Translations under genes and position numbers: made by a program
The notes under the pieces: generated by a model
What the model saw: the letters and a program-made list of their open reading frames with translations, nothing else
What the model was told of the DNA's origin: nothing
Database searches by the model: none
Part shown: in pieces, positions 4,236 to 55,838 of the stretch
Position numbering within the stretch: the stretch's first letter is position 1
How the letters are laid out: the number at the start of each line of letters is the position of its first letter
Source of the DNA: an uncultured Microthrixaceae bacterium
GTDB taxonomy: Bacteria > Actinomycetota > Acidimicrobiia > Acidimicrobiales > VFJN01
Length of the DNA: 64,000 nt
Assembly: GCA_963846555.1 (NCBI GenBank)
Contig: CAWJWI010000004.1
Span: forward strand, 2,043,616-2,107,615
Direction of reading: 5' to 3'

Positions 4236-4804
4236 GGGCCCGCCTCGCTGCTGACCCGGGCCCGTTCGTGGTCGCGCACGAGCCGCTCGATGTGCTCGGC
4301 CAGCGCCCGCTTCGGGTGCTCCTGTCCGAGGTGGAAGGGCTGTACGTCGACCGTGATGTCGGCCAGGTCGCGGTAGAGCGGGGCCCGTTCAGCGTGGAGG
4401 CGCACGAGGACGTCTCGCGGCGTCTCCTCCCCGGCCAAGAGGGGCCGGTGCTCTCGCTTGGCGATGCGGCTGGCCAGGAACGCCGGGTCGGCGTCGAGCC
4501 ACACGACCGTCACCTCGGGCTCATGGAGGCGGCGTCGGTTGTCCTCGCGGAGGACGACGCCGCCACCACTTGCGATCACGTGTGGCTGGTGGTGCTCGAG
4601 CAGCTCCTCGAGCACGTCGGCCTCCAACGCACGGAAGCGCTCCTCGCCGTCTGTGGCGAACACCTCCGCGATCGTGCGCTCTGTGATCTCCACGAGCGCA
4701 TCGTCGGCGTCGACGAACTGCCGGTCGAGCCGGGTTGCCAGGCGACGACCCACCGTGGTCTTGCCCGAGCCCATGAGGCCGACCAGCACGACGTGATGGG
4801 CCAT
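4232..4804 (-). CDS. aroK: Shikimate kinase
   Basis: 190 aa with the P-loop VLVGLMGSGKTTVGRRLA. Its start and stop overlap aroC and aroB respectively. Confidence 0.9.
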   Translation of the reverse strand: MAHHVVLVGLMGSGKTTVGRRLATRLDRQFVDADDALVEITERTIAEVFATDGEERFRALEADVLEELLEHHQPHVIASGGGVVLREDNRRRLHEPEVTVVWLDADPAFLASRIAKREHRPLLAGEETPRDVLVRLHAERAPLYRDLADITVDVQPFHLGQEHPKRALAEHIERLVRDHERARVSSEAGP

Positions 4805-5976
4805 CAGCCGAGCGTGGCGAGGAACGCGTCGCGGTTGCGGCGCAGCTCGTCGACGGAGTCGCCCCCGAACTTGCGGGTGGCTTCGTCGGCCAGCACGAGG
4901 GCCACCATGGTCTCGGCCACAACGCCCATCGCGGGCACGGCGGTCACGTCGGTGCGCTCCTTGAAGCTGACCGTCTCCTCCTTGGTGGCCGTGTCGACGG
5001 TCTTGAGCGTGGGGCGGTTGAGCGTGGCGAGTGGCTTCATGGCTGCCCTGGCCACGAGCAGCTCGCCAGTGGAGATGCCACCTTCGACACCGCCGGCCAG
5101 GGCCGACTCCCGCCGGTAGGCGCTCGCCTCGGCATCCCAGGAGATGGGGTCGTGGGCCTCGCTCCCCCGGCGCCCCGCCACCTCGAAGCCGTCACCGATC
5201 TCGACGCCCTTGACGGCCTGGATCGACATGAGGGCTCGGGCGAGCAGCGCATCGAGCTTGCGGTCCCAGTGCACGTGGCTCCCGAGGCCGACGGGCACGC
5301 CGTAGCCGAGCACCTCGACCACGCCGCCCAGGCTGTCGCCGTCCTTCGCGGCAGCCTTGATCTCCTCGACCATGGCCTCTTCGGCTGACGGGTCGAAGCA
5401 CCGCACCGGCGACTCGTCGACCTGGGCCAGGTCCGAGGGCGCGGGGCGCCCGGTGGCCTTCGAGCGGGCTGCGCCCATCTGGATGACGTGGCTGATGACC
5501 GCGATGTCGAGCTGAGCGAGCAGCGCCTTGGCGACCGTCCCCGCGGCGACGCGGGCGGCTGTCTCGCGGGCCGAGGCCCGCTCGAGGATGTCGCGGGCAT
5601 CGGTGAGGCCGTACTTCTGCATGCCGGCCAGGTCGGCGTGGCCTGGGCGCACCGAGGTGAGCGGCGCCTTGGTGGGGCCGTCCTCGGCCCGCACCGACAT
5701 CTCCTTCTGCCACTTGTCCGGGTCGCGGTCCCACTCGCTGTTGGCGACCTCGATGGCGACGGGCGACCCGAGCGTGCGACCGTGCCGGACGCCGCCGATG
5801 ATCGTGACCTCGTCCTGCTCGAAGCGCATGCGAGGGCCACGGCCGTACCCGAGGCGGCGGCGACCCAGCTCGCTCTGCACCTCCTCCACGGCCAGGGGCA
5901 GCCCAGCGGGCAGCCCCTCGACGATGACGACGAGGGCCCGTCCGTGCGACTCGCCTGCCGTCAGGTACCTGAGCAT
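4804..5976 (-). CDS. aroC: Chorismate synthase
   Basis: Contains MLRYLTAGESHGRALV, RPGHADLAG and SARETAARVAAG. I trimmed the ORF-track start (6078) to the ATG at 5974-5976, which gives the family-typical N-terminus. Confidence 0.92.
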   Translation of the reverse strand: MLRYLTAGESHGRALVVIVEGLPAGLPLAVEEVQSELGRRRLGYGRGPRMRFEQDEVTIIGGVRHGRTLGSPVAIEVANSEWDRDPDKWQKEMSVRAEDGPTKAPLTSVRPGHADLAGMQKYGLTDARDILERASARETAARVAAGTVAKALLAQLDIAVISHVIQMGAARSKATGRPAPSDLAQVDESPVRCFDPSAEEAMVEEIKAAAKDGDSLGGVVEVLGYGVPVGLGSHVHWDRKLDALLARALMSIQAVKGVEIGDGFEVAGRRGSEAHDPISWDAEASAYRRESALAGGVEGGISTGELLVARAAMKPLATLNRPTLKTVDTATKEETVSFKERTDVTAVPAMGVVAETMVALVLADEATRKFGGDSVDELRRNRDAFLATLG

Positions 5977-6095
5977 CGGGACAACGCTACTGGCCGGCCG
6001 CCAAACGACAGGAACCCGTTGCCCCTCCTGACGCTGCCGTCGAGGGCCGCACGGGCCGGATCGTCGACCAGCCTGCACCGCTACCTGGCCCCACG

Positions 6096-6866
6096 TCAGA
6101 CCAGCCGCAGGTCCGTGGCGTAGAAGGCCACGACTAGGCAGGCCAGCGCGAGGGCCGGACCGAACGGGAACTCGCCTCGCCGCCGGGTGACGATGGCGGA
6201 GAGCCCCCCGAACAGCACCCCCAACAGGCAGCCCAGCATCAGTCCGTAGAGCACGAGCTGGATCGGCCCCCCGACGGGATGCGAGCTCGACCAGCCCAGC
6301 CAGCCCAGGTAGAGGCCCATGACCAGCGCCAGCTTCACGTCACCGAAGCCCATGCCCCGCGGGTACACGAGGTGGGGCACGAGGAGGAGCACGAAGTAGG
6401 CGACCGAACCGATGAGGGCCGCCACGAACGAGTCCCCGTCGTCGTACCGGAGCGAGGCCAAGCCGACGAGGGGCACGGCGAGGGCCAGGGTCGGGAAGGT
6501 GACGAGGTCGGGGATGCGGAGGAGCTGGAGATCGATGACCGAGACCGCGACGAGCGAGGCGGCCAGCACGAGCAGGGGCACGATGCGGAGGTCCTCGCCG
6601 AAGCGGGCCGCGAAGATCGCGAAGACGACGGCCGTGACCAGCTCGACCCACAGCCACCGCTTGGGCAGTGCCTCCGCGCCGCCCCGCCCGCCCCGGAGCA
6701 GCCAGGGCTGGAACGGCGCCCCGGCCACCTCGATCGGCTCCGCCGGCTCGCCGTCCCGCGGTCCCCGCAGGGTCACCTTGTCGGGCACCCGGTCGATGAC
6801 GACGTTGAGGAACGATCCGACAGGAACACCGAGCACCCCGAGCCCCACCACCGCCGCCGCGTTCAC
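6096..6866 (-). CDS. A24 family prepilin peptidase-like membrane protease
   Basis: 256-aa polytopic membrane ORF with GSFLNVVIDR near the N-terminus and both catalytic Asp contexts (VIDLQLLRIPD and GFGDVKL). The Cys-rich Zn motif found in many PilD N-terminal loops is absent. Confidence 0.75.
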   Translation of the reverse strand: MNAAAVVGLGVLGVPVGSFLNVVIDRVPDKVTLRGPRDGEPAEPIEVAGAPFQPWLLRGGRGGAEALPKRWLWVELVTAVVFAIFAARFGEDLRIVPLLVLAASLVAVSVIDLQLLRIPDLVTFPTLALAVPLVGLASLRYDDGDSFVAALIGSVAYFVLLLVPHLVYPRGMGFGDVKLALVMGLYLGWLGWSSSHPVGGPIQLVLYGLMLGCLLGVLFGGLSAIVTRRRGEFPFGPALALACLVVAFYATDLRLV

Positions 6867-6884
6867 GTTCGGGACCCTAGAAGA

Positions 6885-8462
6885 TCAGCGCGTGTCGCCC
6901 GAGAGCAGGTAGCGCAGCTCGCTGGGGTCGACGGCCCGGTCGGCGGCCACTTCGGCATCGACGATGCCGTCATGCACGAGATCGGCCAGGGATTGGTCCA
7001 TCGTCCCCATGCCGCTCGTCGCTCCACCCAGGATGGCCTTCGACAGGTTGGCTGAGTCGCCCGCGCGGATGCACTCGACGACAGCCGGCGTGGGCAAGAG
7101 CACCTCGGTGGCGAGGGCCACGCCACCGTCGAGGGCCGGCACGAGCTGCTGGACGACGATGCCCCGCAGGGTGGTGGCCAGCTGCATTCTCACCTGGGGT
7201 TGCTGATCGACGGGGAACACGTCCACGATGCGCTCCACCGTCTGCACGGCGTCGATGGTGCGCAGGGTGGCGAACACGAGGTGCCCGGTCTCGGCCGCGC
7301 CCATGGCGAGGCGGATGGTCTCCACGTCGGGCAGCTCGCCGGCCACGAGCACATCAGGGTCCTGGCGCAGAGCATGACGGAGACCCGACGCGAAGCTCGC
7401 GGTGTCCTCCCCCACCTCCCGTTGGTTCACGAGGCCGCGCTGGTGTCGGTGCAGGAACTCGATCGGGTCCTCGACGGTCAGGATGTGGTCGGCCCGGGTG
7501 CGGTTGATCGAGTCGACGAGGGCGGCCAGCGTGGTCGAGGTGCCCGAGCCATGGGGACCGCAGACCAGCACGAGGCCGCGGCGGTGCTCGGCCCAGTCGA
7601 TCACCTCGTCGGGCAGGCCCAGGTCCTCGGCGCTGGGGATCTCGGCTGGCACCACCCGGAGCACGGCGCCGACCGAGTCCCGTTGGATGAAGGCGGAGAC
7701 CCGGAACCGGCCCTTGCCAGGTATGGCATGCGAGGTGGAGAGCTCGCCGTCGGCGAGGAAGCGATCGCGCTGGCGTTGGGTCAGGACGCCCAGGACGAGC
7801 CGACGCACCTCCGATCCGTTGAGCTGGCCGTGGCCGGGCATGCGTCGGAGCTCGCCCTGGACCCGAACGACAGGCGGGGCGCCGACGGAGAGGTGGAGGT
7901 CCGAGCCACCCACCCGCACGACCTCGCCGAGGAGGTCATCGAGCTGGAGCGGACGCGCCGGCCGAGCCGGGTCACCGGGTTGGTCGTCCGAAGCGCCTGC
8001 CGCGGCGCCCGTCCCGCCCGACGCCGGGCCGTACATCTGCTCGATCAGGCGGAGGAGGTCGTCCCGTACAGCGACAACAGGGATCACGGGAACCCCGAGG
8101 TCGGTCTCCAACGTGGAGATGACCTGCTCGTCCCCCGGATCCTCCAGGACGACGACGAGCCCTGTCGCCCGGCGCTCGAGGGCGACGGCGATGTAGCCCC
8201 GAGCCAGGTCCTCAGGGACGAGACCCCACACGTCGGGCAAGATCGACTGCTCGGCCAGGTCGACGAAGGGCACGCCCAGCTCGCTCGCCACGGCGGCGGT
8301 GAGGTCGTGATCGCTGACGACCTCCTCCAGGGTGAGCAGCTGCGTCAGGTGGATGCCGTCGGCCGCCTCGCGGGCGAGGAGCTCCTCGAGCGCGTCTCTG
8401 GACAGCACCCGCCGGGCCACCAGGAACTCGCCGAGGCGTCGAGAGGAGATGCGCATGCTCAA
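6885..8462 (-). CDS. PilT-like type IV pilus/T2SS ATPase with an N-terminal T2SSE_N (MshEN-like) domain and degenerate catalytic motifs
   Basis: 525 aa. Residues ~8-75 resemble GspE/MshE N-terminal domains (RRLGEFLVARRVLSRDALEELLARE...ELGVPFVDL). Residues ~180-525 align along their length to PilT (GSDLHLSVGAPPVVRVQGEL, ILTVEDPIEF, LVNQREVG, AAETGHLVF). Walker A reads GPHGSGTST rather than GPTGSGKST, GEMRD reads GELPD, and the His box TLHT reads TLRT. Confidence 0.8.
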   Translation of the reverse strand: MSMRISSRRLGEFLVARRVLSRDALEELLAREAADGIHLTQLLTLEEVVSDHDLTAAVASELGVPFVDLAEQSILPDVWGLVPEDLARGYIAVALERRATGLVVVLEDPGDEQVISTLETDLGVPVIPVVAVRDDLLRLIEQMYGPASGGTGAAAGASDDQPGDPARPARPLQLDDLLGEVVRVGGSDLHLSVGAPPVVRVQGELRRMPGHGQLNGSEVRRLVLGVLTQRQRDRFLADGELSTSHAIPGKGRFRVSAFIQRDSVGAVLRVVPAEIPSAEDLGLPDEVIDWAEHRRGLVLVCGPHGSGTSTTLAALVDSINRTRADHILTVEDPIEFLHRHQRGLVNQREVGEDTASFASGLRHALRQDPDVLVAGELPDVETIRLAMGAAETGHLVFATLRTIDAVQTVERIVDVFPVDQQPQVRMQLATTLRGIVVQQLVPALDGGVALATEVLLPTPAVVECIRAGDSANLSKAILGGATSGMGTMDQSLADLVHDGIVDAEVAADRAVDPSELRYLLSGDTR

Positions 8463-8497
8463 AGGATCTCCCGCCGCGGGCGGGCAGGCCCGGATGG

Positions 8498-9592
8498 TCA
8501 GCTCTTCACCGAGGAGAGGAACTTGAGGAGGAGGCCACGGTTGATCGAGCCATCGGTCTCCTCGGTCGCTTCGTCGAGGGCGGCGTCGCGCTCCTCGTCG
8601 GTGACGGCCTGCGCCGCGGCCCGCACCGCGTCAGCCGCACGGGGCGAGAGGGTGGCCAGCTGACGGGCCAGCTCCTCGTCATCGGCTGAGGCGACGGTGC
8701 CGCGGTTGGCCAGGCCCGGGAAGGCGGCCGCCAGGTCGTCGACCGCGATGTCCGCTGCTGGCTCCTCCTCGGTCGGCTTGGACGACATGTGACCGGGGAG
8801 CTCGATGGGCACAAACCGCTCGGGCTCGGAGGGACCGTCGTCCGCCGGCTGCTGCGCCTTGCTCCGCCGGGGTCGGAGAGGCCGGGCCACGGGCAGCTCG
8901 TCGTCGGCCTCAGCCAAAGGCGGTGCTGCCGGGCTGGCAGCCGGCTCCGGCGCCTCGGCCGAGGCTGCGGACATGTGCCTGTCGAGGTCGATGGTGGGCG
9001 GCTCGGGAGCAGCCGTGACCCTGGCGTCCGGGTGGGGCGACGGGGCGGCCGCCCCGATCTCGACCACACCGAGCTCGACGAGGTCGCGAAGGGCCCGGGA
9101 CACGGGGAGCTCGGCCAGCTGCAGCTCGTCGGCGACGGTCCGCACGCTGTCACCGCCACCGACCGCGACGAGGGTGGTCCACTGCTCGCTCGTGATGCTG
9201 ACCGTCGGACCGTCGAGGGTGCGTCGCAGCCGGACGTGCGCATCCAGTGACGGCACCACGGCTTCGATCTCGCGCCACTCGGCCAAGAGCGCCTCGGCAC
9301 CCGCAAGGAGGGACTCGACGTCGACGTCGGGACCAGACGATGGGGGGGCTTCGTCCGGCTCGAAGGCGAACGAGCCCTCGCGGAAGCGCAGCAGCTCGAA
9401 GACTGCGTCGACGGGCTCGACAGCGTGGGGTGCGTGGGTGGCCTCCACGACGCAGACTGCTCCCCCGGAGACCCAGATGCTGCCCGCGCCGCGCTCGGAG
9501 GTGATCCGCAGTCGTCCGCTCTTCTTCGTGGCGCCGAGGAGGCGCAGCACGTCAGGAAGAGCAAAGGTGTCGAGGGTGCCCTGCAGGGCCAC
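8498..9592 (-). CDS. DUF4388 domain protein with a central wHTH-like segment and a disordered acidic C-terminal half
   Basis: 364 aa. The N-terminus LQGTLDTFALPDVLRLLGATKKSGRLRITSERGAGSIWVSGGAVCVVEA matches the DUF4388 pattern. SVRTVADELQLAELPVSRALRDLVELGVVEI looks like a winged helix. The last 15 aa, INRGLLLKFLSSVKS, are amphipathic. The GTG start is preceded by GGAGG. Confidence 0.6.
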   Translation of the reverse strand: MALQGTLDTFALPDVLRLLGATKKSGRLRITSERGAGSIWVSGGAVCVVEATHAPHAVEPVDAVFELLRFREGSFAFEPDEAPPSSGPDVDVESLLAGAEALLAEWREIEAVVPSLDAHVRLRRTLDGPTVSITSEQWTTLVAVGGGDSVRTVADELQLAELPVSRALRDLVELGVVEIGAAAPSPHPDARVTAAPEPPTIDLDRHMSAASAEAPEPAASPAAPPLAEADDELPVARPLRPRRSKAQQPADDGPSEPERFVPIELPGHMSSKPTEEEPAADIAVDDLAAAFPGLANRGTVASADDEELARQLATLSPRAADAVRAAAQAVTDEERDAALDEATEETDGSINRGLLLKFLSSVKS

Positions 9593-9662
9593 GCTGACCT
9601 CCGGGTCAAGTGGTTCGATCTACCCATCGGCACGAACGGGCCGTGGCTTCAGTGGATTCTTC

Positions 9663-10515
9663 TTACCTCCGGTGGAGAAGGGACGCCATCACGGCGGCGC
9701 TCATGGCCTCCAGGGGGGGCTCCTCGCTGGTCCAGATCCGGAAGGCGTGGGCGGCCTGGTGGATGAGCATCCCGAGCCCGTTGACGGTGCGCAGGCCCTG
9801 GCCTCGGGCCGCCTCGGCCAGCGGGGTGATCACAGGGTGGTAGATCAGGTCGACGAGCACCTGGCCGGCCCCGAGGAGGCCTGGGTCGACGGGCAGAGGC
9901 TCCTCCTCGCCGTCGGTGGTCACGACGACTCCCATCCCCAGCGGGGTGGCGTTGATGACGACGTCGACTGTGCCGGCGTCCTCCGGAACCCCGACCCTCC
10001 CGACTCCACCGGCCAGCGCAGCCGCCGTCTCGGCTCGGTCCGGTGTCCGGTTCACGACGACCACGACCGAGGCTCCGGCCCGACCCAGCGCACGGACCAC
10101 CGCGCGCGCCGCACCCCCGGCGCCCAGCACGGCGAACGTGCGGCCGGCCGGGTCGAGGCCTTCGTCGAGCCGAAGGGCGTCGACCAGGCCGGGGCCATCG
10201 GTGTTGTGACCCACGAGCTCCCCGCCGTGCCGGGCGACGCAGTTGACGGCGCCGAGGACCTCAGCATCCTCGCGTGAGCCCGTCCAGGGCATCGAGGACG
10301 GCGGCCTTGTGAGGCATGGTGACCGAGACCCCCTCGAGGCCGAAGGCGCGCACGCCGGCCATGGCCAGACCTGCCGCGCCCTCGGGCACCTCGAAGGCGA
10401 GGTAGGCCCAGTCCAGGCCGCTGGCCGCGAAGGCCGCGTTGAAGATGGTGGGCGACAGCGAGTGCCGGACGGGAAGCCCGATGACGCCCGTGGTGCGGGT
10501 GGTCGCGCTGATCAC
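9663..10515 (-). CDS. aroE: Shikimate dehydrogenase (reading frame interrupted once in this sequence)
   Basis: The N-terminal part (GVIGLPVRHSLSPTIFNAAF...VSVTMPHKAAVLDALD) is the tail of ORF 10261..10929. The C-terminal part (LGAVNCV...GHNTDGPGL...VLGAGGAARAV) is ORF 9663..10292. The frame switches near 10270-10290. The GTG start at 10513-10515 is an estimate. Confidence 0.8.
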
Positions 10516-10528
10516 GAGGTCACCAGGA

Positions 10529-11745
10529 TCAGCCGCACCCGAGGCCGTTCTCACGGCAGCGGGCCTTGGCGGCCAGGAACTCGCTGTTGCTCTCGGTGAA
10601 GAAGTGGTTCCCCGCTTCGTCCTCGAGCACGTAGAAGATCCATGGGCCGTCCTCGGGGTTGAGGGCGGCCTCGATGCTGGCCCGGCCCGGGCTGGCGATG
10701 GGCGTAGGGGGCAGGCCCTGGACCCGCCGCGTGTTGTAGGGCGAGTCGCTGGTGAAGTCGATGTCTCCCCGATCGCGACCCGCGATCTCGGCCTCGTAGC
10801 GCGAGGTGGCATCGATCCCGAGCGGGATGCCCTCGCGCAGGCGGTTGTAGATGACCTGGGCCACCTTGGGTCGCTCGGCGTCGACCTTCGTCTCCTCCTC
10901 GATGAGCGACGCCACGATGAGGATCTCATAGGGGGTGAGGTTGAACCGCTCCTGGGCCGAGGCGACGTCCAGCTGGGCCAGCGTGGCGTCGAGCTGCCCG
11001 ACCATCAGGTTGAGGACGGCCAGCTCGTCGGCGCCGGCCGCCACCCGGTAGGTCTCCGGGAAGAGGATCCCCTCGTTGGACGCCTGGTCTGGCGGCTGGG
11101 CGGTGGACCGGACCTGACCGCTGTCGAGGAGCTGCTGCAGGGTGGCCGCGTCCAGGCCCAGGCCGCGCTCGGGGTCGGCCAGTCGAGCGATGGTCTCGGC
11201 GACGGTGAGGCCCTCGGGCATCGTGAACGAGCGCTCGTCGGGTGGACGAGGCCCCGCGGCGAGCAGGTCGACGACGTCACCCATGGCGCTGTCGGTCGGC
11301 AGCTCGTAGAGGCCGGCCTGGAAGGGGCCACCGCCGTTGATGCGGAGATACCACTCCCACACGAAGTCGCTCGAGATGATCCCCTCGGCCGCCAGGAGCT
11401 GGCCGATCTCGTCGGAGGTGGAGCCCTCGGGGATCTCGATCTCCTTGGCTTCGCCCGGCCCGCCGGGCGGATCGATCTGACGGGAGACCCAGAAGGCGGT
11501 CCCGCCGATGACGACCACCAGGATCAGGGCCAGCGCGGCCAGCACGGTCAGGACGCGTCGCCGCGCGAGGACTCCCGGCGCACGTCGACGTAGTGGGCGC
11601 CGCCCGCGCTGCGATCGTCATCCTCGTACTCGTCGTACTCGTCGTACTCGTACTCGTCTTGCTCGAGCTCGTCGTACGGGAGGTCGGCCTCCTGGTCGTA
11701 GAGGTCGTCAGGGGCGTCGGGGTCGTGCGGGGGGCGATCGGTCAC
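10529..11745 (-). CDS. mltG: Endolytic murein transglycosylase MltG (YceG-like) with an acidic N-terminal tail; probable frame interruption near 11560-11600
   Basis: ORF 10529..11545 has a TM helix followed by a YceG domain (LYELPTDSAMGDV, EGILFPETY, ASLIEEET, YNRL, PYNTRRVQGLPPTPIASPG). The acidic 65-aa ORF 11548..11745 starts with a GTG overlapping the ruvX stop (GTGA), as at other coupled junctions here, so I join the two. In the TM frame RRRAPGVLARRRVLTV continues upstream of 11545. Confidence 0.65.
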
Positions 11746-12180
11746 GGGTGTCCCTCGGGGGTGGGGGGTCGGCGATGGTCGAGCCAGGCCTGCAGCATGA
11801 TGGCCGCTGCGAGCTTGTCGACCACCTTGCGGCGGGCGGGGGCCTTCATGTTCAGAGCCAGCAGATCACGGTCGGCGGTGACGGTGGTGAGGCGCTCGTC
11901 CCAGGTCTCCACCGGGAGCCCGGTGGCGACGGCCAGCTCCTCGGCCTCGGCGAGCGCGCCCCGGGCCGCGGGGCCGACGGAACCGTCGAGCGAGAGCGGC
12001 AGTCCCACGACGATGCACTGGGCCCCGGCCTCCTCGGCCAGGGCTCGCGATGCGGCGGTGGTCGCGCTGGCGGTCACCAGAGCGGGGAACCACCTCGTAG
12101 GGCGTGGCCATCCGGCCGTCGCTGTCGGAGAGCGCCACCCCGACCCTCTTCGAGCCGAGGTCGATGCCCAGGGCCCTCAC
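11742..12180 (-). CDS. ruvX: Holliday junction resolvase-like protein RuvX/YqgF (one frame interruption)
   Basis: The N-terminus MRALGIDLGSKRVGVALSD...ATPYEVV is in ORF 11866..12180. The C-terminus IVVGLPLSLDGS...ERLTTV...KVVDKLAAAIMLQAWL is in ORF 11742..12077. The switch is at the GGGG run 12084-12087. Confidence 0.8.
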
Positions 12181-14778
12181 GAGCCGTCGAGGCCGGCCGC
12201 CGCCCGGACCGTGTCGAGGGCCGCGTCGAGGCCGGCCGCGTCCTTGCCGCCGGCCACGGCCAGCAGCGGATCCTTGCCACCGCCGCCCTTGATCAGCTTC
12301 TTGGCCTCTTCGAGGAGGGCCGAGGCGTCGAAGCCGCTGTCAGGCTTGACGGCTGCGACGATCGCCGCGCCACCCCCCTCGGGGGCGGTGCCGAGCACCA
12401 CGGCCCTCATGCCGGGCTGGTCGCGCAGAGCGAGGGCGAGGTCGCGCAGGCTGTCGCGCTCGAGCCCGTCCACCCGTTCGACGACGACGCCTTCGACCGC
12501 CCGCCCGGCCAGCTCGCCCGCCTGGTCGCCGGCGGCCTGGCGCTTCAGCACCTTGATCTCGTCGCGCAGGGCCTTGACCTCGTCGAGCCGCTTGCGAGCC
12601 CCCTCGACGACCTCGCCCACGGGCACGTTCAGAACCTCGGCCACCCGGGCCAGCAAGGCCTCCTCCTCGCGGAGGCGCTCGATGGGCCCCGTGCCTGTCA
12701 CGGCCTCGATGCGGCGCAGGTTCGAGCCGATCGAGCTCTCGGAGACGATCTTCACGGGCCCGATGTCGCCCAGAGCCCTCACGTGGGTGCCTCCGCACAG
12801 CTCGGTGGAGCGGCGGCCGGCCTCGAGGACGCGGACGTCTCGCCGTACTTGTCACCGAAGAAGGCGATGGCGCCCAGGGCCATGGCCTCGGCCTTGGTGG
12901 TCTCGTAGTGGCGCACCGTGTCGTTGTGGAGGATCTCCTCGTTGGCGAGGTCTTCGATCTGGCGCACCTGATCGGCGGTGAGGGCATCCGCCGGCCCGAA
13001 GTCGAACCGCAGCCGGTCGGGGTCGACGAGCGAGCCCTGCTGCTGGACGTCTGTCGCCGAGGACCTTGCGCAGAGCCCAGTGGAGGATGTGGGTGCCCGT
13101 GTGGTTGCGCCGGATGGCGTCCCGACGGGCCACGTCGAGGGTGGCCGTGACCTCGTCGCCCGCTTCGAGGGCGCCCTCGGTGATGCGGACGAGGTGGCGG
13201 TGCAGGCCGGGCAGACCGTATGTCGTGTCGCTCACCTCGGCCTGGCCCGCCTCGCCGACCAGCACGCCGGTGTCCCCGACCTGGCCACCGGACTCGGCGT
13301 AGAACGGGGTGCGGTCGAGGAAGACCGACGCCGTGCCGTCCTCGCCGGGTACCACGGCCAGCACGGTGGCCTTGGTCTCGTTCTCCTCGCGGCCGACGAA
13401 CTCCGTCGCGCCGAAGCGGTCGAGGATCTCTTGGAAGGAGGTGAGGTTGGCGTAGAGGTCCGAACCCGCCTTGGCGCCCGCCTTGGAGACCTGCTGGGCC
13501 TTCTCGAGGGCGGCGCGGTAGCCGGCGTCGTCGACCTCGATGCCGAGCTCGGCGGTGATCTCCTGGGTGACCTCGAGCGGGAACCCGAAGGTCTCGTAGA
13601 GGTCGAAGGCGACGTCGCCGCCGAGCGCCTGGCCCTCGCCCAGCTCGGACAGCTTGGAGTCGAGCAGGGTCGTCCCCCGCTTCAGCGTCTGGCGGAAGCG
13701 GTCCTCCTCCCGGCTGACGATGCCGGTGATGCGGTCCTGGTCGGCCCGCAGCTCGGGGTAGCCGTCGGCCATGGCGTCGACGACCGCCGCGATCAGCGGG
13801 GCCGAGAGGTCGCGCTCGACGCCGAGGAGGTAGGCGTACCGGACGGCGCGCCGAATGATGCGACGCAGCACGTAGCCCCGATCCTCGTTGGACGGGACGA
13901 TGCCGTCGGCCACGAGGAACGTCATCGTGCGACCGTGGTCAGCCAGGACCTTGAGGGCGATGTCGGTGCGGTCGTCGGTGCCGAGGCGAACGACCGGTGA
14001 TCGACTGGGCCACCTCCACGAGCTGGTTGAGGGGGTCGACGTCGTAGACCGTGTGCGTGCCGTTCAGGGCGGTGAGCATCCGCTCGAGCCCCGCCCCCGT
14101 GTCGATGCCAGGCTTGGGCAGGTCGGTGAGCTCGCCGTCGTGGCCCCGGAAGTACTGCGGGAAGACGAGGTTCCAGATCTCGACGTAGCGGTCCTCGGCG
14201 GCCGGGTTCTCGGGGCCGCCCTCGGGCCCGAAGTCGGCGCCGTAGTCCCAGAAGATCTCCGAGCTGGGACCGCAGGGGCCGATGTCGCCCATCTCCCAGA
14301 AGTTGTCCTTGTCGAGCCGCTGTATGCGGTCGCGGGGGAAGCCCACGGCGTCGGCCCAGATGTCTGCCGCTTCGTCGTCGCTGACGTGGACGGTGACCCA
14401 CATGCGATCGCCGTCGAGGCCCAAGACGTCGGTGAGGAGCTCCCACGCCCACGGGATGGCCTCGGCCTTGAAGTAGTCACCGAAGCTGAAGTTGCCGAGC
14501 ATCTCGAAGAAGCTCAGGTGGCGGGGCGTGCGACCGATGGCGTCGAGGTCGTTGTGCTTGCCGCCCGCCCGGACGCACTTCTGGACGGTGGCGGCGCGGG
14601 CCGGATCGAGGGAGGTCGACTCCTCGCCCAGGAAGATGGGGACGAACTGCATCATCCCCGAGTTCGTGAACATCGGGGCCGTCGGATGGGTCGGGATGAG
14701 GCTCGACGACGGGAGCAGCGTGTGCTGCTTGGCGACGAAGAACTCGTTCCAGGTTCGACGGAGACCGTTGGCGTCCAT
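12177..14778 (-). CDS. alaS: Alanine--tRNA ligase (3 or more frame interruptions)
   Basis: Four consecutive ORF fragments (13939..14778, 12852..13925, 12779..12967, 12177..12782) carry FTNSGMMQFVP, RHLSFFEMLGNFSFGDYFK, EIWNLVFPQY, DTGAGLERM, PSNEDRGYVLRRIIRRA, HTGTHILHWALR and the C-terminal DHHA1-like part. Frame switches lie near 13995, 13055 and 12838. The summed length (~867 codons) fits AlaS. Confidence 0.9.
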
Positions 14779-14814
14779 GGGTGGATCGAGCCTACCGGCC
14801 GTCTCCGGTAGGAC

Positions 14815-15075
14815 TCACCAGCGTTCGGGGGCGCCGCGACCGTCCCGGCCCAGCTCGGAGCGCAGCTCCGCCTCACGCTCGCGCATGGCTTCTCGCCCCT
14901 CGGCCACGGCGGCCCGGAGGTCGGTGCCGAGGCCCTTGACCGCCCCGGCCAGGTCGGCCGAGACGCGCTCGGGCGTGTAGCGGGCGGCCGTCTCGCGCAC
15001 GAACCGCATGATCCAGAACGAGGCTCCGAACCCGAAGCCGGCCCCGATGAGCAACCAGAACAGACGACGGAGCAC
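14815..15075 (-). CDS. Small hypothetical membrane protein
   Basis: 86-aa ORF with one N-terminal TM helix (LFWLLIGAGFGFGASFWIM) and a charged helical tail. It is co-directional with alaS and the DUF948 gene. No family recognised. Confidence 0.4.
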   Translation of the reverse strand: MLRRLFWLLIGAGFGFGASFWIMRFVRETAARYTPERVSADLAGAVKGLGTDLRAAVAEGREAMREREAELRSELGRDGRGAPERW

Positions 15076-15078
15076 GGG

Positions 15079-15444
15079 CTAGCGCTCGTTCCGGGTGCGC
15101 CGGAATCGGCGCGCCGCCCGTCCGGTGCCCGACGCCAGGGCCACGGCCTTGATGGCCGGGTTCGAGAAGAGCAGGTAGGCGAGCCGAGACGCGGAGTCGA
15201 CCGTGCCCCCGATGGACTCGGCCGTGCCGAGAACGCCGTCGAGCCGCTCGAGCTCCGCGTTGGCGTTGCGCACCGTGTGGCCCAGCTCGGTCATGACGGG
15301 GACCGTCTCGGTGCGCAGCAGCTCGACGGTCTCCCGCACCGCCTTGAGGGTCTTGGTGATCGACACGAGGGCCACGGCGAGGAGGACCACCGCGACGACG
15401 CTGGCGATGGCCACGATGAGCGCGGCTAGCTCTTCCGCGCTCAC
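15079..15444 (-). CDS. DUF948 domain membrane protein
   Basis: 121 aa with an N-terminal TM helix (LAALIVAIASVVAVVLLAVALV) followed by a coiled region (TLKAVRETVELLRTETVPVMTEL...) typical of actinobacterial DUF948 proteins. Confidence 0.55.
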   Translation of the reverse strand: MSAEELAALIVAIASVVAVVLLAVALVSITKTLKAVRETVELLRTETVPVMTELGHTVRNANAELERLDGVLGTAESIGGTVDSASRLAYLLFSNPAIKAVALASGTGRAARRFRRTRNER

Positions 15445-16893: not shown

Positions 16894-16915
16894 CACGCAC
16901 CCCTAGGGGGTTGAG

Positions 16916-17833
16916 ATGTCCATCGAGCTCTCCACCGTCATCGACGAGCTCGCGCGAGCCCAGCACGGGCTCGTCACCACCGACCAAGCTCTCAAGGCGC
17001 TCGGACCGAGCCGCAAGGACCGTTGGGTCTCGGAGCGACGCCTGCTGTGCGTGCAGCCTCGGGTCTTCCGGGTCGCAGGTGCACCCCAGACCTGGCACCA
17101 GAGCCTGATGGCAGCCGCCCTCACGACGGGTGGGGTGATCTCGCACCGATCGGCGGCCGAGATGTGGGGCCTGATCCAGCCCGCCGGGTACGTCGATGTG
17201 TCGATCCAACCCGCCCGTGCCCCCCGTGCCCAACCTCCGGTCATCGTCCATCGGATCAAGGACCTGCACCCAGAGCTGGCGAACGAGCGTGAGGGGCTCA
17301 GGCTGACAGATCCCGTTCGGACCCTCATCGACCTCGGGCTGGTCCTGCCGACCTGGGCCGTGCGCGACGCGCTCAGCCGCGGCATCACGACCCGTCTGTT
17401 CGCGGTCGGTCAGGTCGACCGCCTTCGCGACGCCCTGGGCCGCAAGGGGCGGAACGGAACGGGGGTGGTCCGGCAGCTGCTCGACGAGCGCGCCCTCATG
17501 GCCGGGGAGGACAGCGTGCTCGAGCGCCGTCTGATGCTCCTGGCTCAGCGGCACGACCTCCCACCGATGTCCATCCAGCACGAGGTCTGGCACGCAGGGC
17601 GCTTCATCGCCCGCATCGACGGCGCGTACGCGGACCGAAAGCTGGCCATCGAGGTCGACGGGTACGAGCACCACTCCTCCCCCGACGCCTTCCAACGCGA
17701 CCGCGAGAGGCAGAACCGGCTCGTGGCCCTCGGATGGACCGTGCTCCGGTTCACGTGGAAGGACGTCGTGCAACGGCCCGCATCGGTCGCCAAGCAGATC
17801 AGCGACGCCATCAACCGCCTGCCGGCTGCCTGA
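16916..17833 (+). CDS. DUF559 (Vsr/endonuclease-like fold) protein with an AbiEi_4-like N-terminal HTH
   Basis: Intact 305-aa ORF. The N-terminus (LARAQHGLVTTDQALKALG...RVFRVAG...SHRSAAEMWGL) matches AbiEi-type antitoxin-like domains. The C-terminus (DGAYADRKLAIEVDGYEHHSSPDAFQRDRERQNRLVALGWTVLRFTWKDV) is the DUF559 signature. It is the only plus-strand gene within a ~21-kb minus-strand run. Confidence 0.8.
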   Translation: MSIELSTVIDELARAQHGLVTTDQALKALGPSRKDRWVSERRLLCVQPRVFRVAGAPQTWHQSLMAAALTTGGVISHRSAAEMWGLIQPAGYVDVSIQPARAPRAQPPVIVHRIKDLHPELANEREGLRLTDPVRTLIDLGLVLPTWAVRDALSRGITTRLFAVGQVDRLRDALGRKGRNGTGVVRQLLDERALMAGEDSVLERRLMLLAQRHDLPPMSIQHEVWHAGRFIARIDGAYADRKLAIEVDGYEHHSSPDAFQRDRERQNRLVALGWTVLRFTWKDVVQRPASVAKQISDAINRLPAA

Positions 17834-24718: not shown

Positions 24719-26287
24719 CTATGGACGACTCGGCGCGCTTCGCTGCGCCTGCGCGACCGGCGCCCGGGCGGTGCGAGACTTCACGAAGGGGTCGATCGAG
24801 TGGAGCGCCACCTTCTGCGCCTTCCCCCGGACATCGAACACCCCGCGCGCCTTGGTGCGGAGCCCCGGCACGGTGAGGGCGAGGCGCGTCGCCTCGGTGA
24901 TGAGGATCGCGTCACCCGTCTCCTTCGTGAGGGCTTCCACCCGGGACGCGACGTTGACCGTGTCACCGATGACGGTGAACTCGAGCTTGCCGCCCCCGCC
25001 GATGGTCCCGGCGATCACGGACCCGGAGTTCACGCCGATCCCGATCCGGAGCTCCTTCCCGAACTCCTCCTGCACCCGGCGGTGCACCTCGATGGCGCAA
25101 GCCACCGCCCGATCGGCGTGGTCGCGAAGCGGGTTGGGGGTTCCGAAGACGGCGAGCACGCCGTCCCCGAGGTAGTGGTTGGCGTGCCCGTCCTGCTCCC
25201 GGATCACCGGCACCACGACCGCGAAGAAGCGGTTCAGGAGGTGGACGGCCTCACGTGCGGTGGCCGTCTCGGCGAAGGTCGTGAAGTCGCGGACGTCGGC
25301 GAACAGCACCGAGACCTCGACGTCCTCGCCCTCGAACGTGGCGTCGCCCTGGTCGAGCAGGCGCTGGGCCAGGGCGGGGTCGACATAGGAGCCGAAAGCA
25401 GCCTGGAGGGACTGCCGTTCCCGCAGGCCACGCTGCATCTCGTTGAACGCTGCGGCGAGATCGCCGAACTCGTCGCTCGAGGTGACGGGCACGAGCTCGG
25501 TCAGATCGCCCCTCCCCACTCGTCTCGTGGCCCCGATCAGGCTCTTCAGCGGTCGCAGGCTCGGCTCGACGACGCCGCTCCGGAAGATGAGCGTCAGGTA
25601 GGTGCCGAGCACCACCGATGCGATGAGCACGGCGGCGTACCGGCCCTGGCGGGTCTCCCACTCCAGCGTGACGACCGATGCCGCGACCGCCGCCGACGTG
25701 GTCATGGTCAGCCCGGTGGCGAGGAGCCGGAAGCGGAGGCTCCAGCCCCGCACGAGGGTGATCTCCCCCGTCACCTCGGGCGCCAGCTCGTCGAGCATCG
25801 GGGCCAGGTACTGAGCCAGCCAGATCCCGGAGAGCAGCCACGACGCCAGGACCAGGATCGTGTTCGTCCCCGTGACCGAGATCGTCTCCACCACGGTGAG
25901 GTCCGCCACGTGGTGCAGGTACGGCATCAGCGTCCCGAGGAACGCGGGGGCCAGGACCGGGTGGAGGCGAGTGGTCAGCAGCCGGGGGGCGAGCAGGGCC
26001 GCCTCCCACGCCTCGAGCGGTGCGCTCCGATCGCCGCAGGCCCACCGCTCGATGGGTCGCAGACGACCCCGGGCGGTCATGGCCGTCAGCATGCCGGCCA
26101 GCGCGGCGAAGAAGCAGCAGCCGTAGCAGACGAGGGACTGCTCCAGCGTCAGGTCGAAGTACAGGATCAGCACGACCATGGCGGGGCCGGTGATGCCGAC
26201 GATCCAGGCGAAGACCGTCGTGGAGATCAGGCCAGCGACATAGCTGCGCGGGCGCACCCGCAACAGCCACTCCGCCAGGCGACCCAC
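24719..26287 (-). CDS. Membrane-anchored class III adenylate/guanylate cyclase with a HAMP domain
   Basis: Intact 522-aa ORF with multiple N-terminal TM helices, a HAMP-like segment (VGRGDLTELVPVTSSDEFGDLAAAFNEMQRGL) and a cyclase core (VSVLFADVRDFTTFAE, LGDGVLAVFGTP, RIGIGVNSGSVIAGTIGG, VIGDTVNVASRVEAL). Confidence 0.88.
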   Translation of the reverse strand: MGRLAEWLLRVRPRSYVAGLISTTVFAWIVGITGPAMVVLILYFDLTLEQSLVCYGCCFFAALAGMLTAMTARGRLRPIERWACGDRSAPLEAWEAALLAPRLLTTRLHPVLAPAFLGTLMPYLHHVADLTVVETISVTGTNTILVLASWLLSGIWLAQYLAPMLDELAPEVTGEITLVRGWSLRFRLLATGLTMTTSAAVAASVVTLEWETRQGRYAAVLIASVVLGTYLTLIFRSGVVEPSLRPLKSLIGATRRVGRGDLTELVPVTSSDEFGDLAAAFNEMQRGLRERQSLQAAFGSYVDPALAQRLLDQGDATFEGEDVEVSVLFADVRDFTTFAETATAREAVHLLNRFFAVVVPVIREQDGHANHYLGDGVLAVFGTPNPLRDHADRAVACAIEVHRRVQEEFGKELRIGIGVNSGSVIAGTIGGGGKLEFTVIGDTVNVASRVEALTKETGDAILITEATRLALTVPGLRTKARGVFDVRGKAQKVALHSIDPFVKSRTARAPVAQAQRSAPSRP

Positions 26288-26375
26288 GGGAGAGAGTTCT
26301 AATCACGTCCGGGGCTCCGCCGCGTGATGGTGGCGCCAGTTCCGGCGCCGCGCTCCGCCCGCTCAGCCGCCCCGA

Positions 26376-27800: not shown

Positions 27801-29103
27801 TCAGAGGGCTCGGGGTCGGAAGCGGTGCTCGAACGCAGACCGAACGCGTTGCTTGTCCGAATCAGGCAGATCGGCACGATCGTTGAGCACGGCGATCAGC
27901 TCAGCTTGTTCTCGCAACGCTGCCAGGGTGTCAGATGGGGCACTCCGCAAGGACACCTCGAGGAGACTGAGAACCTCGAGGAGGTAGATCTGGACCGTGG
28001 GCAACTCGGCGGATGCGAGCCGAACTTCATCAAAGGCCAGCTCGACAACCTTGCGGGGGGTGAACTGCTGATCGAGCATCACCACTCGCTCATCGTCGCC
28101 ATCACAACGCCGAGCTGGCGGGGTACGCGAGAGGAGTTCTCGCAACAGCGTCCCGAGGTGGAAGATCGCATCCTGGGCGGTCGTCGGGTCGTTTATGCCG
28201 GGTGACAACGCCTTCAGCGCGACGTCGGCAAGCTGTCGAACGCCGTAGGTCGCATCGTCACGCATCGTCCGGCTACGTCCGACGAGGACTGCCGCGCGCA
28301 CCGACCGCCGCACCGCCTCGGGGTCATCGGGAACGGGCAGCACGCGGCCGATCGGGGTACCCGCGATGGCGTACCGACCCGCCACTGTCTCGACCTGCAG
28401 CACCGTGGACGGGCCGATCGCTCTGAGAAGCGCGTCGGTGTCGATCTCTTGCACCCATCCGTCACAGTCGAAATCGATGACGCATGCCTCATCGCCTAGA
28501 GAATCGACGGGCGCGACCGACTCCGGTCCGCTCGACGCGTTCAGGCCACTGCGCGCGGATCTGTCGGAGCGCCTCCTGACTTGCATCGTGGAGGATCTCC
28601 GAGACATCCATCGTGTGGGCGCTATGACTGATGAACGCGACGATCGAGAGGATCGCGATCACCCCGAGGAGGACCGCGAGCCCTATGGAGATGCTTGGAA
28701 CGACAGGCTGCCCTCCCTCCTCCAACGGCCCCCGCACCGCCCGAAGCACGATGAGGCAGTAGGTGAACGTGCCGATGACGACGCCCATGACGCGCTTGTT
28801 GTACGGATCCCGAAACAGGCCATGCACCACCCGTGGCGAGTACTGCGACGACGCCAGTGAGATGAGCAGCAAGCTCACGGAGAAGGCGACGCCTGCGAAG
28901 CTGATGGTCGCACCCGCCACGACGCCCAGTACTGCTCGGGCGCTGTCGACGGTTGCCGTGAAGCGCACACTCACATCATCGATTCGGTCGTCCACCTCAA
29001 GGGCTGCCTGGCCGAGCACGAACCCCCCGACCACGAACAGCATCGGGACGTAGAAGAGGCTGCTCCGGACGCTCTCCTGCAGCGATTTGAACCTTGAGAG
29101 CAC
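27801..29103 (-). CDS. DUF2254 family membrane protein (one frame interruption)
   Basis: The N-terminal four-TM part (LFYVPMLFVVGGFVLG...SLASSQYSPRVVHGLFRDPYNKRVMGVVIGTFTYCLIVL...) is in ORF 28489..29226. The soluble C-terminal part (GVRQLADVALKALSPGINDPTTAQDAIFHLGTLL) is in ORF 27801..28607. The switch is near 28540. The GTG start at 29101-29103 is preceded by GGGAGG. Confidence 0.7.
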
Positions 29104-29200
29104 GAGGCAACCTCCCGAGTACGGCGACCCCGGGCTAGCAGAGCGTGCGTAGGGTAGGTCAACCGGAGGGCGTCTCGCCCCCGACACCCGGGCGCCGTCG

Positions 29201-29233
29201 ATCTCCGATGACGCAACCCCACGCATCGGAGAT
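29201..29233 (+). promoter_or_regulatory. Perfect 10-bp-stem hairpin that pairs with the glsB Shine-Dalgarno sequence
   Basis: ATCTCCGATG (29201-29210), a 13-nt loop, then CATCGGAGAT (29224-29233). The right arm contains GGAG at 29228-29231, 6 nt before the ATG at 29238. Confidence 0.45.
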
Positions 29234-29237
29234 CCTC

Positions 29238-29489: not shown

Positions 29490-29490
29490 A

Positions 29491-31189: not shown

Positions 31190-31336
31190 TCGAGGTAGAG
31201 GGCAGGGTCGGTCACGGGTCGACGTTATCGATGGGGCTGGGCCAGTAGTGCCGACCGATCTGCCCGACCCGCTCCGTCGGCAACGACGTCAACCCCGCGG
31301 TTGGGAACGGCCGCGATCCATCGGGTCGATCGCGGT

Positions 31337-35179: not shown

Positions 35180-35204
35180 GGCGTCAGGCTACCGGTCGGC
35201 CTGG

Positions 35205-55834: not shown

Positions 55835-55838
55835 CCGG

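Follow-up and report, generated by a model that had tools for sequence, protein, structure and literature searches.

Proteins closely resembling the one studied here are labelled 'twitching motility protein PilT' or 'PilT/PilU family type 4a pilus ATPase' in public databases, and the question raised by the present locus is whether such a protein is still the motor that these labels imply. Its gene, of an MshEN-PilT type that we describe as a pseudo-ATPase, occupies positions 6885-8462 on the (-) strand of the stretch of DNA that we analysed (64 kb from an uncultured Microthrixaceae bacterium, hereafter the window); all the other features given below lie on the (-) strand as well. A preliminary description made from the letters alone had proposed a regulatory or scaffolding pseudo-ATPase, or else an ATPase with atypical chemistry, rather than a retraction motor. 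No relevant earlier description of a lysine-less or pseudo-ATPase PilT was found in the open-access literature.

Architecture and catalytic site of the PilT-like protein

The open reading frame encodes 525 aa from a TTG at 8462, with its stop codon at 6885-6887. The orthologues and the database copy of the protein (P0001) begin two residues later, at an ATG at 8456 (523 aa), which is likely the true start. The C-terminal part had been reported to be colinear with PilT, and the full PilT core is indeed found: the NCBIfam model TIGR01420 (PilT/PilU) matches residues 174-515 with 407.9 bits (cut-off 319.1) over profile positions 2-343 of 343, and the protein is colinear with the solved PilTs of Aquifex and Geobacter at ~48% identity (E values of 1e-96 to 1e-100). 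Pfam recognises both a T2SSE domain (125 bits) and an MshEN domain (PF05157; 54 bits, cut-off 23.1). The AF2 model has a pLDDT of 84 and a TM score of 0.92 against the PilT structure 6OJX.

From the N-terminus, the protein starts with a four-helix MshEN region that holds two 24-residue motif remnants (aa 9-61; positions 8280-8438), as delineated by the model NF053729 and by predicted helices at residues 7-16, 22-35, 39-45 and 51-62, followed by the MshEN alpha/beta subdomain (aa 62-148; 8019-8279), seen by Pfam and in the structural model, in which the complete four-helix plus alpha/beta fold is visible. A disordered linker (aa 149-170; 7953-8018; pLDDT below 50 at residues 149-168) leads to the PilT N-terminal (N2D/PAS-like) domain (aa 171-275; 7638-7952), with its RFR motif kept (R252, R254), and then to the PilT C-terminal RecA-like ATPase domain (aa 276-525; 6888-7637), which is the most constrained region of the protein and is catalytically degenerate.

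This degeneracy is seen at several sites, of which the preliminary description had named the first three; alignment to the solved PilTs confirmed all three readings. The Walker A remnant (aa 302-310; 7533-7559) reads GPHGSGTST in place of GPTGSGKST, with T133 and K137 (Geobacter PilT4 numbering) replaced by H304 and T308. The end of Walker B (aa 375-379; 7326-7340) reads GELPD in place of GEMRD or GELRD, the catalytic Glu being kept as E376 and the Arg (R207) replaced by P378. In the His box ETGHLVFATLRT (aa 391-402; 7257-7292), where TLRT stands for TLHT, the first His is kept and the second (H230) is replaced by R401. Finally, the motif AIRNLIRE reads AVVECIRA (aa 460-467; 7062-7085), and R278 is replaced by V. 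The lysine of the pattern GxxGxGK[ST] and the pair of His-box histidines (in Geobacter PilT4, H223 and H230), both of which go with TIGR01420 proteins, are therefore not found here, nor is the AIRNLIRE motif of PilT proper. In Pseudomonas PilT, E204A and H229A each abolish twitching (PMC6858323). What is still present in the window protein includes E376, the Asp-box E335, S309/T310, T392 (the equivalent of T221) and the RFR arginines, R254 among them, and the alignment also bears out the reported retention of the Asp box (EDPIE) and of AAETGH. As had been argued from the Thr codon, the changes are substitutions and not indels: T308 is encoded by ACC, H304 by CAT, P378 by CCC and R401 by CGC, and the coding sequence has no long homopolymer runs.

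Conservation of the substitutions across the lineage

The orthologue set consisted of the 120 closest protein clusters (69-100% identity), which belong to metagenome-assembled genomes (MAGs) of Acidimicrobiales/Microthrixaceae and come from independent NCBI, ENA, JGI and Logan assemblies. The Walker A lysine is absent from all 120, with T, I, L or M in its place and G[PSQA][HR][GR][SA]G[TILM]ST as the overall pattern; the second His-box position is R in 117 of them, P378 is near-invariant (119 of 120), and both R278 and the AIRNLIRE motif are gone throughout. H304 is common to the family and, like R401, is a positively charged residue newly fixed at the former nucleotide site. The catalytic Glu is kept in 88% of the family and is D, A or S in the remaining 12%, and there is drift at the Asp-box D (D/E/Q) and at the first His of the His box (H/Q) as well. 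When 85 positions conserved at 90% or more in 109 canonical PilT-type representatives are taken as the reference, the family keeps 65 of them and has replaced 10, the latter including K to T/I/L/M, T to H, R to P, H to R and R to V/L.

The open reading frame is intact and full-length in every one of the 120 clusters, with the same substitutions throughout. Its dN/dS ratio is ~0.24, compared with 0.26, 0.33 and 0.32 for the mltG, pepQ and A24 peptidase genes, respectively, and along the gene pN/pS is lowest in the ATPase core (0.23) and reaches a neutral 0.95 in the linker. The gene is thus under purifying selection and evolves like its housekeeping neighbours. The shared non-canonical residues, including those at the lysine and second His-box positions, for which a comparison of orthologues had been suggested, support the earlier reading of a conserved pseudo-ATPase, and they exclude a strain-specific lesion or base error.

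The same comparison bears on the idea that the gene is a decaying relic of a lost pilus cluster, or that its substitutions stem from error-prone assembly. The gene is demonstrably the remainder of a reduced pilus cluster (see below), and the window assembly does contain indel errors, which break alaS, ruvX and aroE into pieces in different reading frames; however, the idea is scarcely credible and is already refuted by the orthologues, in which independent assemblies agree on substitutions rather than indels, the reading frame is kept at a housekeeping level of constraint, and new invariant residues have arisen. Sequencing error as the origin of the substitutions is rejected on the same agreement of independent assemblies.

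To judge from these residues, the protein appears to have lost ATP hydrolysis, and perhaps ATP binding. Nucleotide binding or some residual chemistry may persist at the site, since the catalytic residues are partly retained and H304 and R401 are new invariants there. It is a further step to suppose that the protein is still a motor, an ATPase with atypical chemistry in which H304 and/or R401 stand in for the lysine of Walker A and the histidine of the His box. The charge and conservation of these two residues would suit such a role, as would the retention of E376, E335, S309/T310, T392 and R254 in the window protein, but the lysine position is variable, being hydrophobic in many orthologues, and thus seems unconstrained, the catalytic Glu, the Asp box and the first His have all drifted, R207 and R278 are lost too, and the locus has no pilus machinery to drive. 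We therefore regard this second proposal of the preliminary description as very improbable.

The locus and its origin in a type IVa pilus cluster

Directly upstream of the gene lies a PATAN/DUF4388 (PatA_N) gene (8498-9592; 364 aa), whose stop is 35 nt before the start of the PilT-like gene. Its product matches Pfam PF14332 over residues 4-107 with 61.1 bits (cut-off 25), is listed under PatA_N at L027, an orthologous locus, and has a disordered middle part, an invariant C-terminal peptide NRGLLLKFLSSVKS and no receiver domain. Downstream, 18 nt past the stop, begins a gene for a PilD-like A24 prepilin peptidase (6096-6866; 256 aa; PF01478, 54 bits with a cut-off of 26.5; A24_N_bact, 28 bits with a cut-off of 23), whose translation has both Asp motifs (VIDLQ...IPD and GFGDVK). 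The cassette is bordered upstream by aroE (shikimate dehydrogenase; 9663-10511), which appears frameshifted in this assembly, and downstream by aroC (chorismate synthase; 4804-5976). The order aroE-DUF4388-pilT-like gene-A24 was found in 17 of the 19 orthologous loci examined and in L027, that is, in all those whose contig extends to the flanking genes; members of the DUF4388 partner family are found on contigs that carry the PilT-like family, and the PilD-like gene is intact beside the PilT-like gene in every locus.

No pilB, pilC, pilMNO or prepilin/pilin gene and no second T2SSE ATPase gene was found in the 64-kb window or within ~10 kb at the orthologous loci examined, while the two loci used as positive controls, L025 and L026, were both detected. 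A protein search with the PilB of L025 gave at least 120 matches, of which all those listed were 74-100% identical and came from the clade with the canonical cluster; none of these had a contig equal in length to one that carries the PilT-like pseudo-ATPase. We also considered, and reject, the possibility that pilus genes are hidden in the 2-6 kb that separate the peptidase gene from aroC at other loci: this stretch encodes a kinase of the APH type and a conserved protein of 351 aa, besides further unrelated genes. Promoter, terminator and Rfam scans of the locus and the window returned nothing, riboswitches included. The claim that the protein is not a retraction motor gains from this lack of pilB, pilC, pilin and pilMNO genes at the locus, together with the purifying selection on the gene.

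At the 50%-identity level the family forms a single representative. The other 146 representatives listed include no further lysine-less GxxGxG-x-[ST] Walker A; nearly all have GxxGxGK[ST], and a handful either do not match the regular expression or read GR. The best full-length canonical relatives are P0133 and P0134 (loci L025 and L026, respectively), with 42-43% identity, the same range as for the flanking housekeeping proteins. They share with the present protein the domain architecture, the length (513-531 aa) and the chromosomal site, alaS-ruvX-mltG-aroE ... pepQ, but they carry GxTGSGK[ST], GEMRD, TLHT and A[IV]RNL[IV]RE. Their genes lie between aroE and pepQ inside pilB-pilT-pilC-pilin-pilD-pilM-pilN-pilO, in a cluster without a PATAN gene, and each provides a complete pilus cluster with its sole PilT. 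The preliminary description was right that a T2SSE_N domain is present, but this is not special to the protein: the canonical relatives carry the MshEN-PilT fusion too, and therefore the fusion predates the loss of the catalytic residues. The protein thus descends from the MshEN-bearing PilT of an Acidimicrobiia type IVa pilus cluster situated in the alaS-ruvX-mltG-aroE ... aroC operon. At this site in the Microthrixaceae-like lineage, only the dead pilT and pilD are left, with a newly acquired PATAN/DUF4388 gene immediately upstream of the former.

The residues that split ATP have been lost lineage-wide, yet the gene is under selection beside its PATAN partner; therefore, a motor turned regulator or scaffold is the most likely outcome, and on balance we favour the explanation that the protein is a catalytically inactive descendant of a pilus-cluster PilT, now working together with the PATAN protein as a scaffold or regulator. 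A more specific form of this explanation, which we hold to be rather unlikely, is that it regulates a live motor in a competitive or dominant-negative way: it would dock on the PilC/TadB-like platform of a type IV filament machine encoded elsewhere, or co-assemble with active PilT or PilB, and extension or retraction would be blocked or gated under PATAN control. The PilD retained beside the gene would imply prepilin substrates somewhere in the genome, but an A24 peptidase beside aroC may be an old actinobacterial arrangement rather than a mark of a type IVa pilus, and no partner genes for such a motor were found in the regions searched above. Likewise, T392 and L440, the counterparts of the packing-interface markers T221 and L269, do not vary in the family, which would suit such a regulator, while AIRNLIRE, typical of working PilTs, is lost. 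The finding that PATAN regulators bind both PilB1 and the N-terminal domain of PilC (bioRxiv 10.1101/2021.06.11.447907) also speaks for a regulator of this kind.

Possible function and known systems

For the favoured explanation, the following sequence may be proposed. ATP hydrolysis would have been lost along with Lys and Thr of Walker A, the Arg that follows the catalytic Glu, the gamma-phosphate His and the R278 equivalent, and the remaining PilT-shaped, probably hexameric protein would serve as a scaffold or adaptor. The co-encoded PATAN protein would dock on its MshEN domain, as the cyanobacterial PATAN does on the N-terminal part of PilB1, and the pair would relay a signal to a membrane-associated target, either a filament machine encoded elsewhere or a non-pilus process. 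The contact between PATAN and MshEN is suggested by the adjacency of the two genes and by the analogy to PilB1. A variant in which the two proteins form a pilus-independent signalling module is tentative and somewhat doubtful; here the PilT hexamer would have been re-used, after the type IVa pilus was lost, as a scaffold sensing nucleotides or partners, the invariant C-terminal helix of the PATAN protein could act as a tether, and what the module controls in these bacteria, which are often filamentous, might for instance be the growth of the envelope, polarity or exopolysaccharide. If this variant is true, a motor of the secretion superfamily would have turned into a pseudoenzyme regulator that outlived its machine.

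The MshEN domain could also make the protein mainly a sensor. Its first motif, RLGEFLVARRVLSRDALEELLARE, follows the MshEN pattern with exactly the two departures reported for the first helix in the preliminary description (G18 to R and Q32 to E); it is separated by the spacer AADGI from a second motif, HLTQLLTLEEVVSDHDLTAAVASE, which is far more degenerate (R38H, G40T, T44 at a hydrophobic position, G47E and Q61E). As in Vibrio cholerae MshE, motif 1 starts with R9-L10-G11, in identical numbering, and is followed by a 5-residue spacer, and the four-helix bundle and alpha/beta subdomain precede a secretion-type ATPase as in MshE, PilB and PilF; unlike in these proteins, however, the relaxed published motif is violated at seven positions, two in motif 1 and five in motif 2, of the four hallmark glycines (G11, G18, G40 and G47) G11 alone is present, both Gln are Glu, and in MshE the change G11I by itself abolished c-di-GMP binding (PMC5013675). 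The 53-residue c-di-GMP motif model NF053729 gives 24.5 bits, below its cut-off of 38. Canonical c-di-GMP binding by this domain is therefore unlikely, with only one of the four glycines left; the pattern noted for the first helix in the preliminary description is confirmed, and c-di-GMP sensing is not to be taken for granted. A second-messenger receptor, in which c-di-GMP or some other nucleotide is still bound, either by the MshEN domain or by the remodelled P-loop, would be in keeping with the Pfam match, with the near invariance of motif 1 in the family (RLGEFLV..RVLSRD.L.ELLARE), which is nearer to the MshEN consensus than the corresponding region of P0133 and P0134, and with H304 and R401 as new invariants in the former ATP pocket; given the seven mismatches and the low motif score, we consider it distinctly unlikely.

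In NCBI and JGI the proteins are annotated as if they were functional PilTs, and an inference of twitching or pili from this gene would mislead in Acidimicrobiales/Microthrixaceae, bacteria that are abundant in soil and activated sludge. The family also offers a natural experiment in the conversion of a hexameric secretion-type motor to a pseudoenzyme, with ten replacements around the nucleotide site and the remaining fold under housekeeping-level selection.

Compared with the PilT/PilU retraction ATPases (Geobacter metallireducens PilT4, 6OJX; Aquifex aeolicus PilT, 2EWV; Pseudomonas aeruginosa PilT, 3JVV), the protein has both PilT domains end to end, and the 65 of the 85 conserved positions that are kept include RFR, EDPIE, NQREVG, the catalytic Glu and AAETGH; it differs in the replacement of Lys and Thr in Walker A, of the Arg following the catalytic Glu, of the second His, of R278 and of AIRNLIRE, in its N-terminal MshEN domain, and in a locus without pilB, pilC and pilin. 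Non-hydrolysing P-loop proteins are also known as regulators, localisers or scaffolds of type IV filament machines, namely FlaH/ArlH of the archaellum and TadZ/CpaE of the Tad system, but these have other folds (KaiC/RecA-like and MinD/ParA-like, respectively), do not descend from PilT and have their genes within the loci of working machines. The closest parallel for the pairing is found in cyanobacteria. In Synechocystis, PATAN (DUF4388) binds the GspE_N-containing N-terminal part of PilB1, and DUF4388-GspE_N fusion proteins are known, while no binding of the PATAN regulators to PilT1 was seen (bioRxiv 10.1101/2021.06.11.447907). As with the PatA-type regulators PixE, PixG and LsiR, a PATAN protein is here associated with an ATPase-type protein bearing GspE_N/MshEN, which would extend this association to Actinomycetota and provide a simple two-protein system for the study of PATAN recognition; in contrast to those regulators, the PATAN protein of the present locus lacks a receiver domain and combines a long stretch of disorder with the invariant peptide at its C-terminus, and the protein with which it presumably pairs is a dead one of the PilT type rather than PilB.

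PilT fold and inactivated nucleotide site

The minus-strand ORF at 6885-8462 encodes 525 aa when counted from a TTG codon, and the start used by its orthologues and by the identical database protein is an ATG two codons later. Residues 174-515 match the PilT/PilU family from end to end (NCBIfam, 407.9 bits; cut-off 319.1), and Pfam places MshEN at residues 62-148, in addition to T2SSE. The protein is colinear with the solved PilTs of Aquifex, Geobacter, Thermus and Pseudomonas (E-values 1e-89 to 1e-100). In an AlphaFold2 model with a mean pLDDT of 84, MshEN forms a four-helix plus alpha/beta unit (residues 7-144), the linker (149-168) is disordered, and the PilT body superposes on Geobacter metallireducens PilT4 (6OJX) with a TM of 0.92. 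Judged from its sequence, the protein is a PilT/PilU member by homology that fails both the catalytic definition of this family and the PilT-specific motif AIRNLIRE, which here reads AVVECIRA.

All of the substitutions listed in the preliminary description (Walker A, GELPD, TLRT) are seen in the alignment to the solved PilTs, and the codon of T308 is indeed ACC. Further mapping on Geobacter PilT4 gave the replacements T133 to H304, K137 to T308, R207 to P378, H230 to R401 and R278 to V448, with R83 (R254), the Asp-box Glu, the catalytic Glu (E376), T221 (T392), the first His-box His (H394) and L269 (L440) being kept. The loss of the Walker A lysine, described earlier for this protein, is common to its orthologues rather than strain-specific, as the lysine is absent from 120 of the 120 closest protein clusters (69-100% identical; NCBI, ENA, JGI and Logan assemblies), those with names being Acidimicrobiales, Microthrixaceae or Acidimicrobiia MAGs. 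Across this family the lysine position is occupied by T, I, L or M, and is therefore unconstrained; little or no variation is seen at H304, C301, P378 and R401. The Asp-box D drifts (D, E or Q), as does the first His-box H (H or Q), and the catalytic Glu is E in 88% of the family. As a canonical reference we used 109 PilT-type representatives chosen for GK[ST] and the second His, so that these two columns are 100% by construction; 65 of the 85 positions at least 90% conserved in this set stay at least 90% conserved in the lysine-less family, and the 10 that are replaced cluster around the nucleotide site. The protein lacks the Walker A Lys, the gamma-phosphate His and two arginines of the nucleotide site, and H229A and E204A each kill Pseudomonas PilT (PMC6858323), so that it would not hydrolyse ATP. 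It probably still forms PilT-like rings, since neither of the interface markers (T392, L440) varies.

Selection and integrity of the reading frame

Pairwise dN/dS (Nei-Gojobori, 16 orthologues) was 0.24 for the PilT-like gene, 0.12 for aroC, 0.26 for mltG, 0.32 for the A24 peptidase gene, 0.33 for pepQ and 0.40 for the DUF4388 gene, values that are good for ranking only, as synonymous sites are near saturation. Within the gene, pN/pS was lowest, and constraint thus strongest, in the inactivated ATPase core (0.23); both MshEN subdomains are under constraint as well (0.38-0.40), the linker evolving neutrally (0.95). A lesion or an assembly artefact was considered as the source of the altered site and rejected, the changes being substitutions confirmed by independent assemblies. 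The ORF is intact despite frameshifts in other genes of the window.

As for those genes, the frames of alaS (12177-14814; at least three frame changes needed), ruvX (11742-12177) and aroE (9663-10511) are broken, the latter two each giving two tblastn segments in different frames. Also split are secD/F (pieces at 36329-38075) and an EF-G-like gene (piece at 54484-55863), and ruvC and ruvA_N lie within one frame at 41335-42861. The essential genes broken here are intact in the orthologous loci. Related loci come from 'MFD' MAGs, and one locus (L015) is similarly fragmented; the splits look like indel errors of long-read MAG assembly, not real pseudogenes.

Descent from a pilus cluster

When 1.84 billion 50%-identity representatives were searched exhaustively, the lysine-less family came down to one full-length representative (P0093) and two fragments. 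No second lysine-less GxxGxG-x-[ST] Walker A was found among the other 146 representatives listed, nearly all of which carry GxxGxGK[ST], a few having no regex match or GR (P0187 first site, P0223). About 10 of those listed align from the N-terminus, and thus share the MshEN-PilT architecture with canonical residues. The best two, P0133 and P0134, are 42-43% identical to the window protein, within the range of the flanking housekeeping proteins (alaS 44-48%, rarA 56%, mltG 34-39%, aroE ~36%, aroC 61%). They are encoded in complete type IVa pilus clusters (pilB, MshEN-pilT, pilC, pilin, pilD, pilM, pilN, pilO) at 6331-15414 of locus L025 and 5413-14250 of locus L026, inside the conserved alaS-ruvX-mltG-aroE ... 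aroC/pepQ string, in the order rarA-alaS-ruvX-mltG-aroE-[PilB]-[MshEN-PilT]-[PilC]-[pilin]-[PilD]-[PilM-PilN-PilO...]-pepQ; the sole PilT there bears MshEN, and relatives of the L025 PilB carry Acidimicrobiia names. From the same site and an identity in the housekeeping range, the window protein is the positional orthologue of the only PilT in the complete type IVa cluster that other Acidimicrobiia hold in the alaS/aro operon.

In the window the order is aspS-(REase)-rarA-DUF948-alaS-ruvX-mltG-aroE-[DUF4388/PATAN]-[PilT-like]-[A24 peptidase]-aroC-aroB-pepQ-efp-nusB, which is kept in every orthologous locus examined whose contig extends to the neighbours (17 of the 19 taken from GTDB species genomes, and L027). 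No pilB, pilC, pilMNO, second T2SSE ATPase or prepilin signal was found in the 64-kb window, nor within ~10 kb in the orthologous loci examined; identical scans detected the pilus genes in L025 and L026. Gaps of 35 nt and 18 nt separate the three cassette genes, scans of the locus showed neither a terminator-like site nor an Rfam match, and we infer that the cassette is co-transcribed within the aro string. The analysis establishes a PilT fold, an inactivated nucleotide site, conservation under selection, pilus-cluster descent and tight linkage to the PATAN gene and pilD; it is highly probable that the protein is a conserved pseudo-ATPase descended from the PilT of the cluster.

The distance from the A24 peptidase gene to aroC varies from 0 to 6 kb in other genomes and is filled by unrelated genes (L002, 12424-14541; L009, 10731-16063; L027, 12447-15676), an islet absent in the window (6078-6096). 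Most related genomes have here genes for an APH-type phosphotransferase and for a conserved protein of 351 aa, to which some add a P450-like gene and a small pair resembling a toxin-antitoxin system; all of these are missing from the window genome. Between rarA and aspS, a lone plus-strand gene (16907-17833) encodes REase_MTES_1575/DUF559 endonuclease domains, and in L027 this gap is occupied by an AbiEi_4 antitoxin-like gene instead, suggesting that the site is a small hot spot of defence or mobile genes. The G+C content falls to 0.64-0.67 at 28000-32000, versus ~0.71-0.75 elsewhere, and an MscS-type channel gene (29455-30444, plus strand) lies inside this region.

The MshEN domain and the PATAN partner

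Motif 1 of MshEN (R9-E32, RLGEFLVARRVLSRDALEELLARE) fits the published pattern save for G18R and Q32E, in agreement with the preliminary description, and is nearly invariant across the lysine-less family, a sign that its surface is in use. Motif 2 (H38-E61) has five departures, four of them at key positions (R38H, G40T, G47E, Q61E) and the fifth, T44, at a hydrophobic position. Neither motif passes even the relaxed search pattern of Wang et al. (PMC5013675), only one of the four hallmark glycines is left, and in MshE G11I by itself abolished binding (PMC5013675). The 53-residue motif scores 24.5 bits with the NCBIfam model (cut-off 38). With the motifs failed and the score below cut-off, canonical c-di-GMP binding is unlikely. 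The window ORFs that were scanned included no GGDEF, EAL or PilZ gene; within 30 kb, the minus strand encodes two class III nucleotidyl cyclase proteins (one a HAMP-cyclase, the other an alpha/beta-hydrolase-cyclase) as well as a RelA/SpoT homologue (24719-26302, 31337-32716, 32717-35188).

The PATAN/DUF4388 gene (8498-9592) lies directly upstream of the PilT-like gene, and the two families are found together on many contigs. In the PATAN protein a near-invariant PATAN N-terminus is followed by a disordered middle, and several short motifs are conserved, among them RFVPIELPGH and DDLAAAFPGL. Nearly all of the 120 listed homologues finish with the C-terminal peptide NRGLLLKFLSSVKS (8498-8542), which comes after a long disordered stretch rich in Pro, Ala and Glu; the few exceptions end in G or bear one substitution. 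The peptide may serve as an amphipathic helix for membrane targeting or as a docking site for a partner. We tentatively propose, as a mechanism whose chances fall somewhat short of even, that the PATAN protein would bind the MshEN domain of the PilT-like protein, and that the pair would work at the membrane as a scaffold or switch. Its target may be a type IV filament machine with genes elsewhere, conceivable because pilD has been kept, or a process that has nothing to do with pili.

In the searchable literature neither a lysine-less subfamily of PilT nor a pairing of PATAN with PilT turned up, and public databases label these proteins as functional PilT, an annotation that is corrected here. 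The family offers a clean example of a motor turned pseudoenzyme as well as a handle on PATAN function, and overturns no current view. The canonical clusters of L025 and L026 are without a PATAN gene, whereas in the window this gene stands at the place of pilB. In Synechocystis, the PATAN domains of PatA-type regulators bind the GspE_N-containing N-terminal part of PilB1 as well as the N-terminal domain of PilC and are membrane-localised, and DUF4388-GspE_N fusion proteins exist (bioRxiv 10.1101/2021.06.11.447907).
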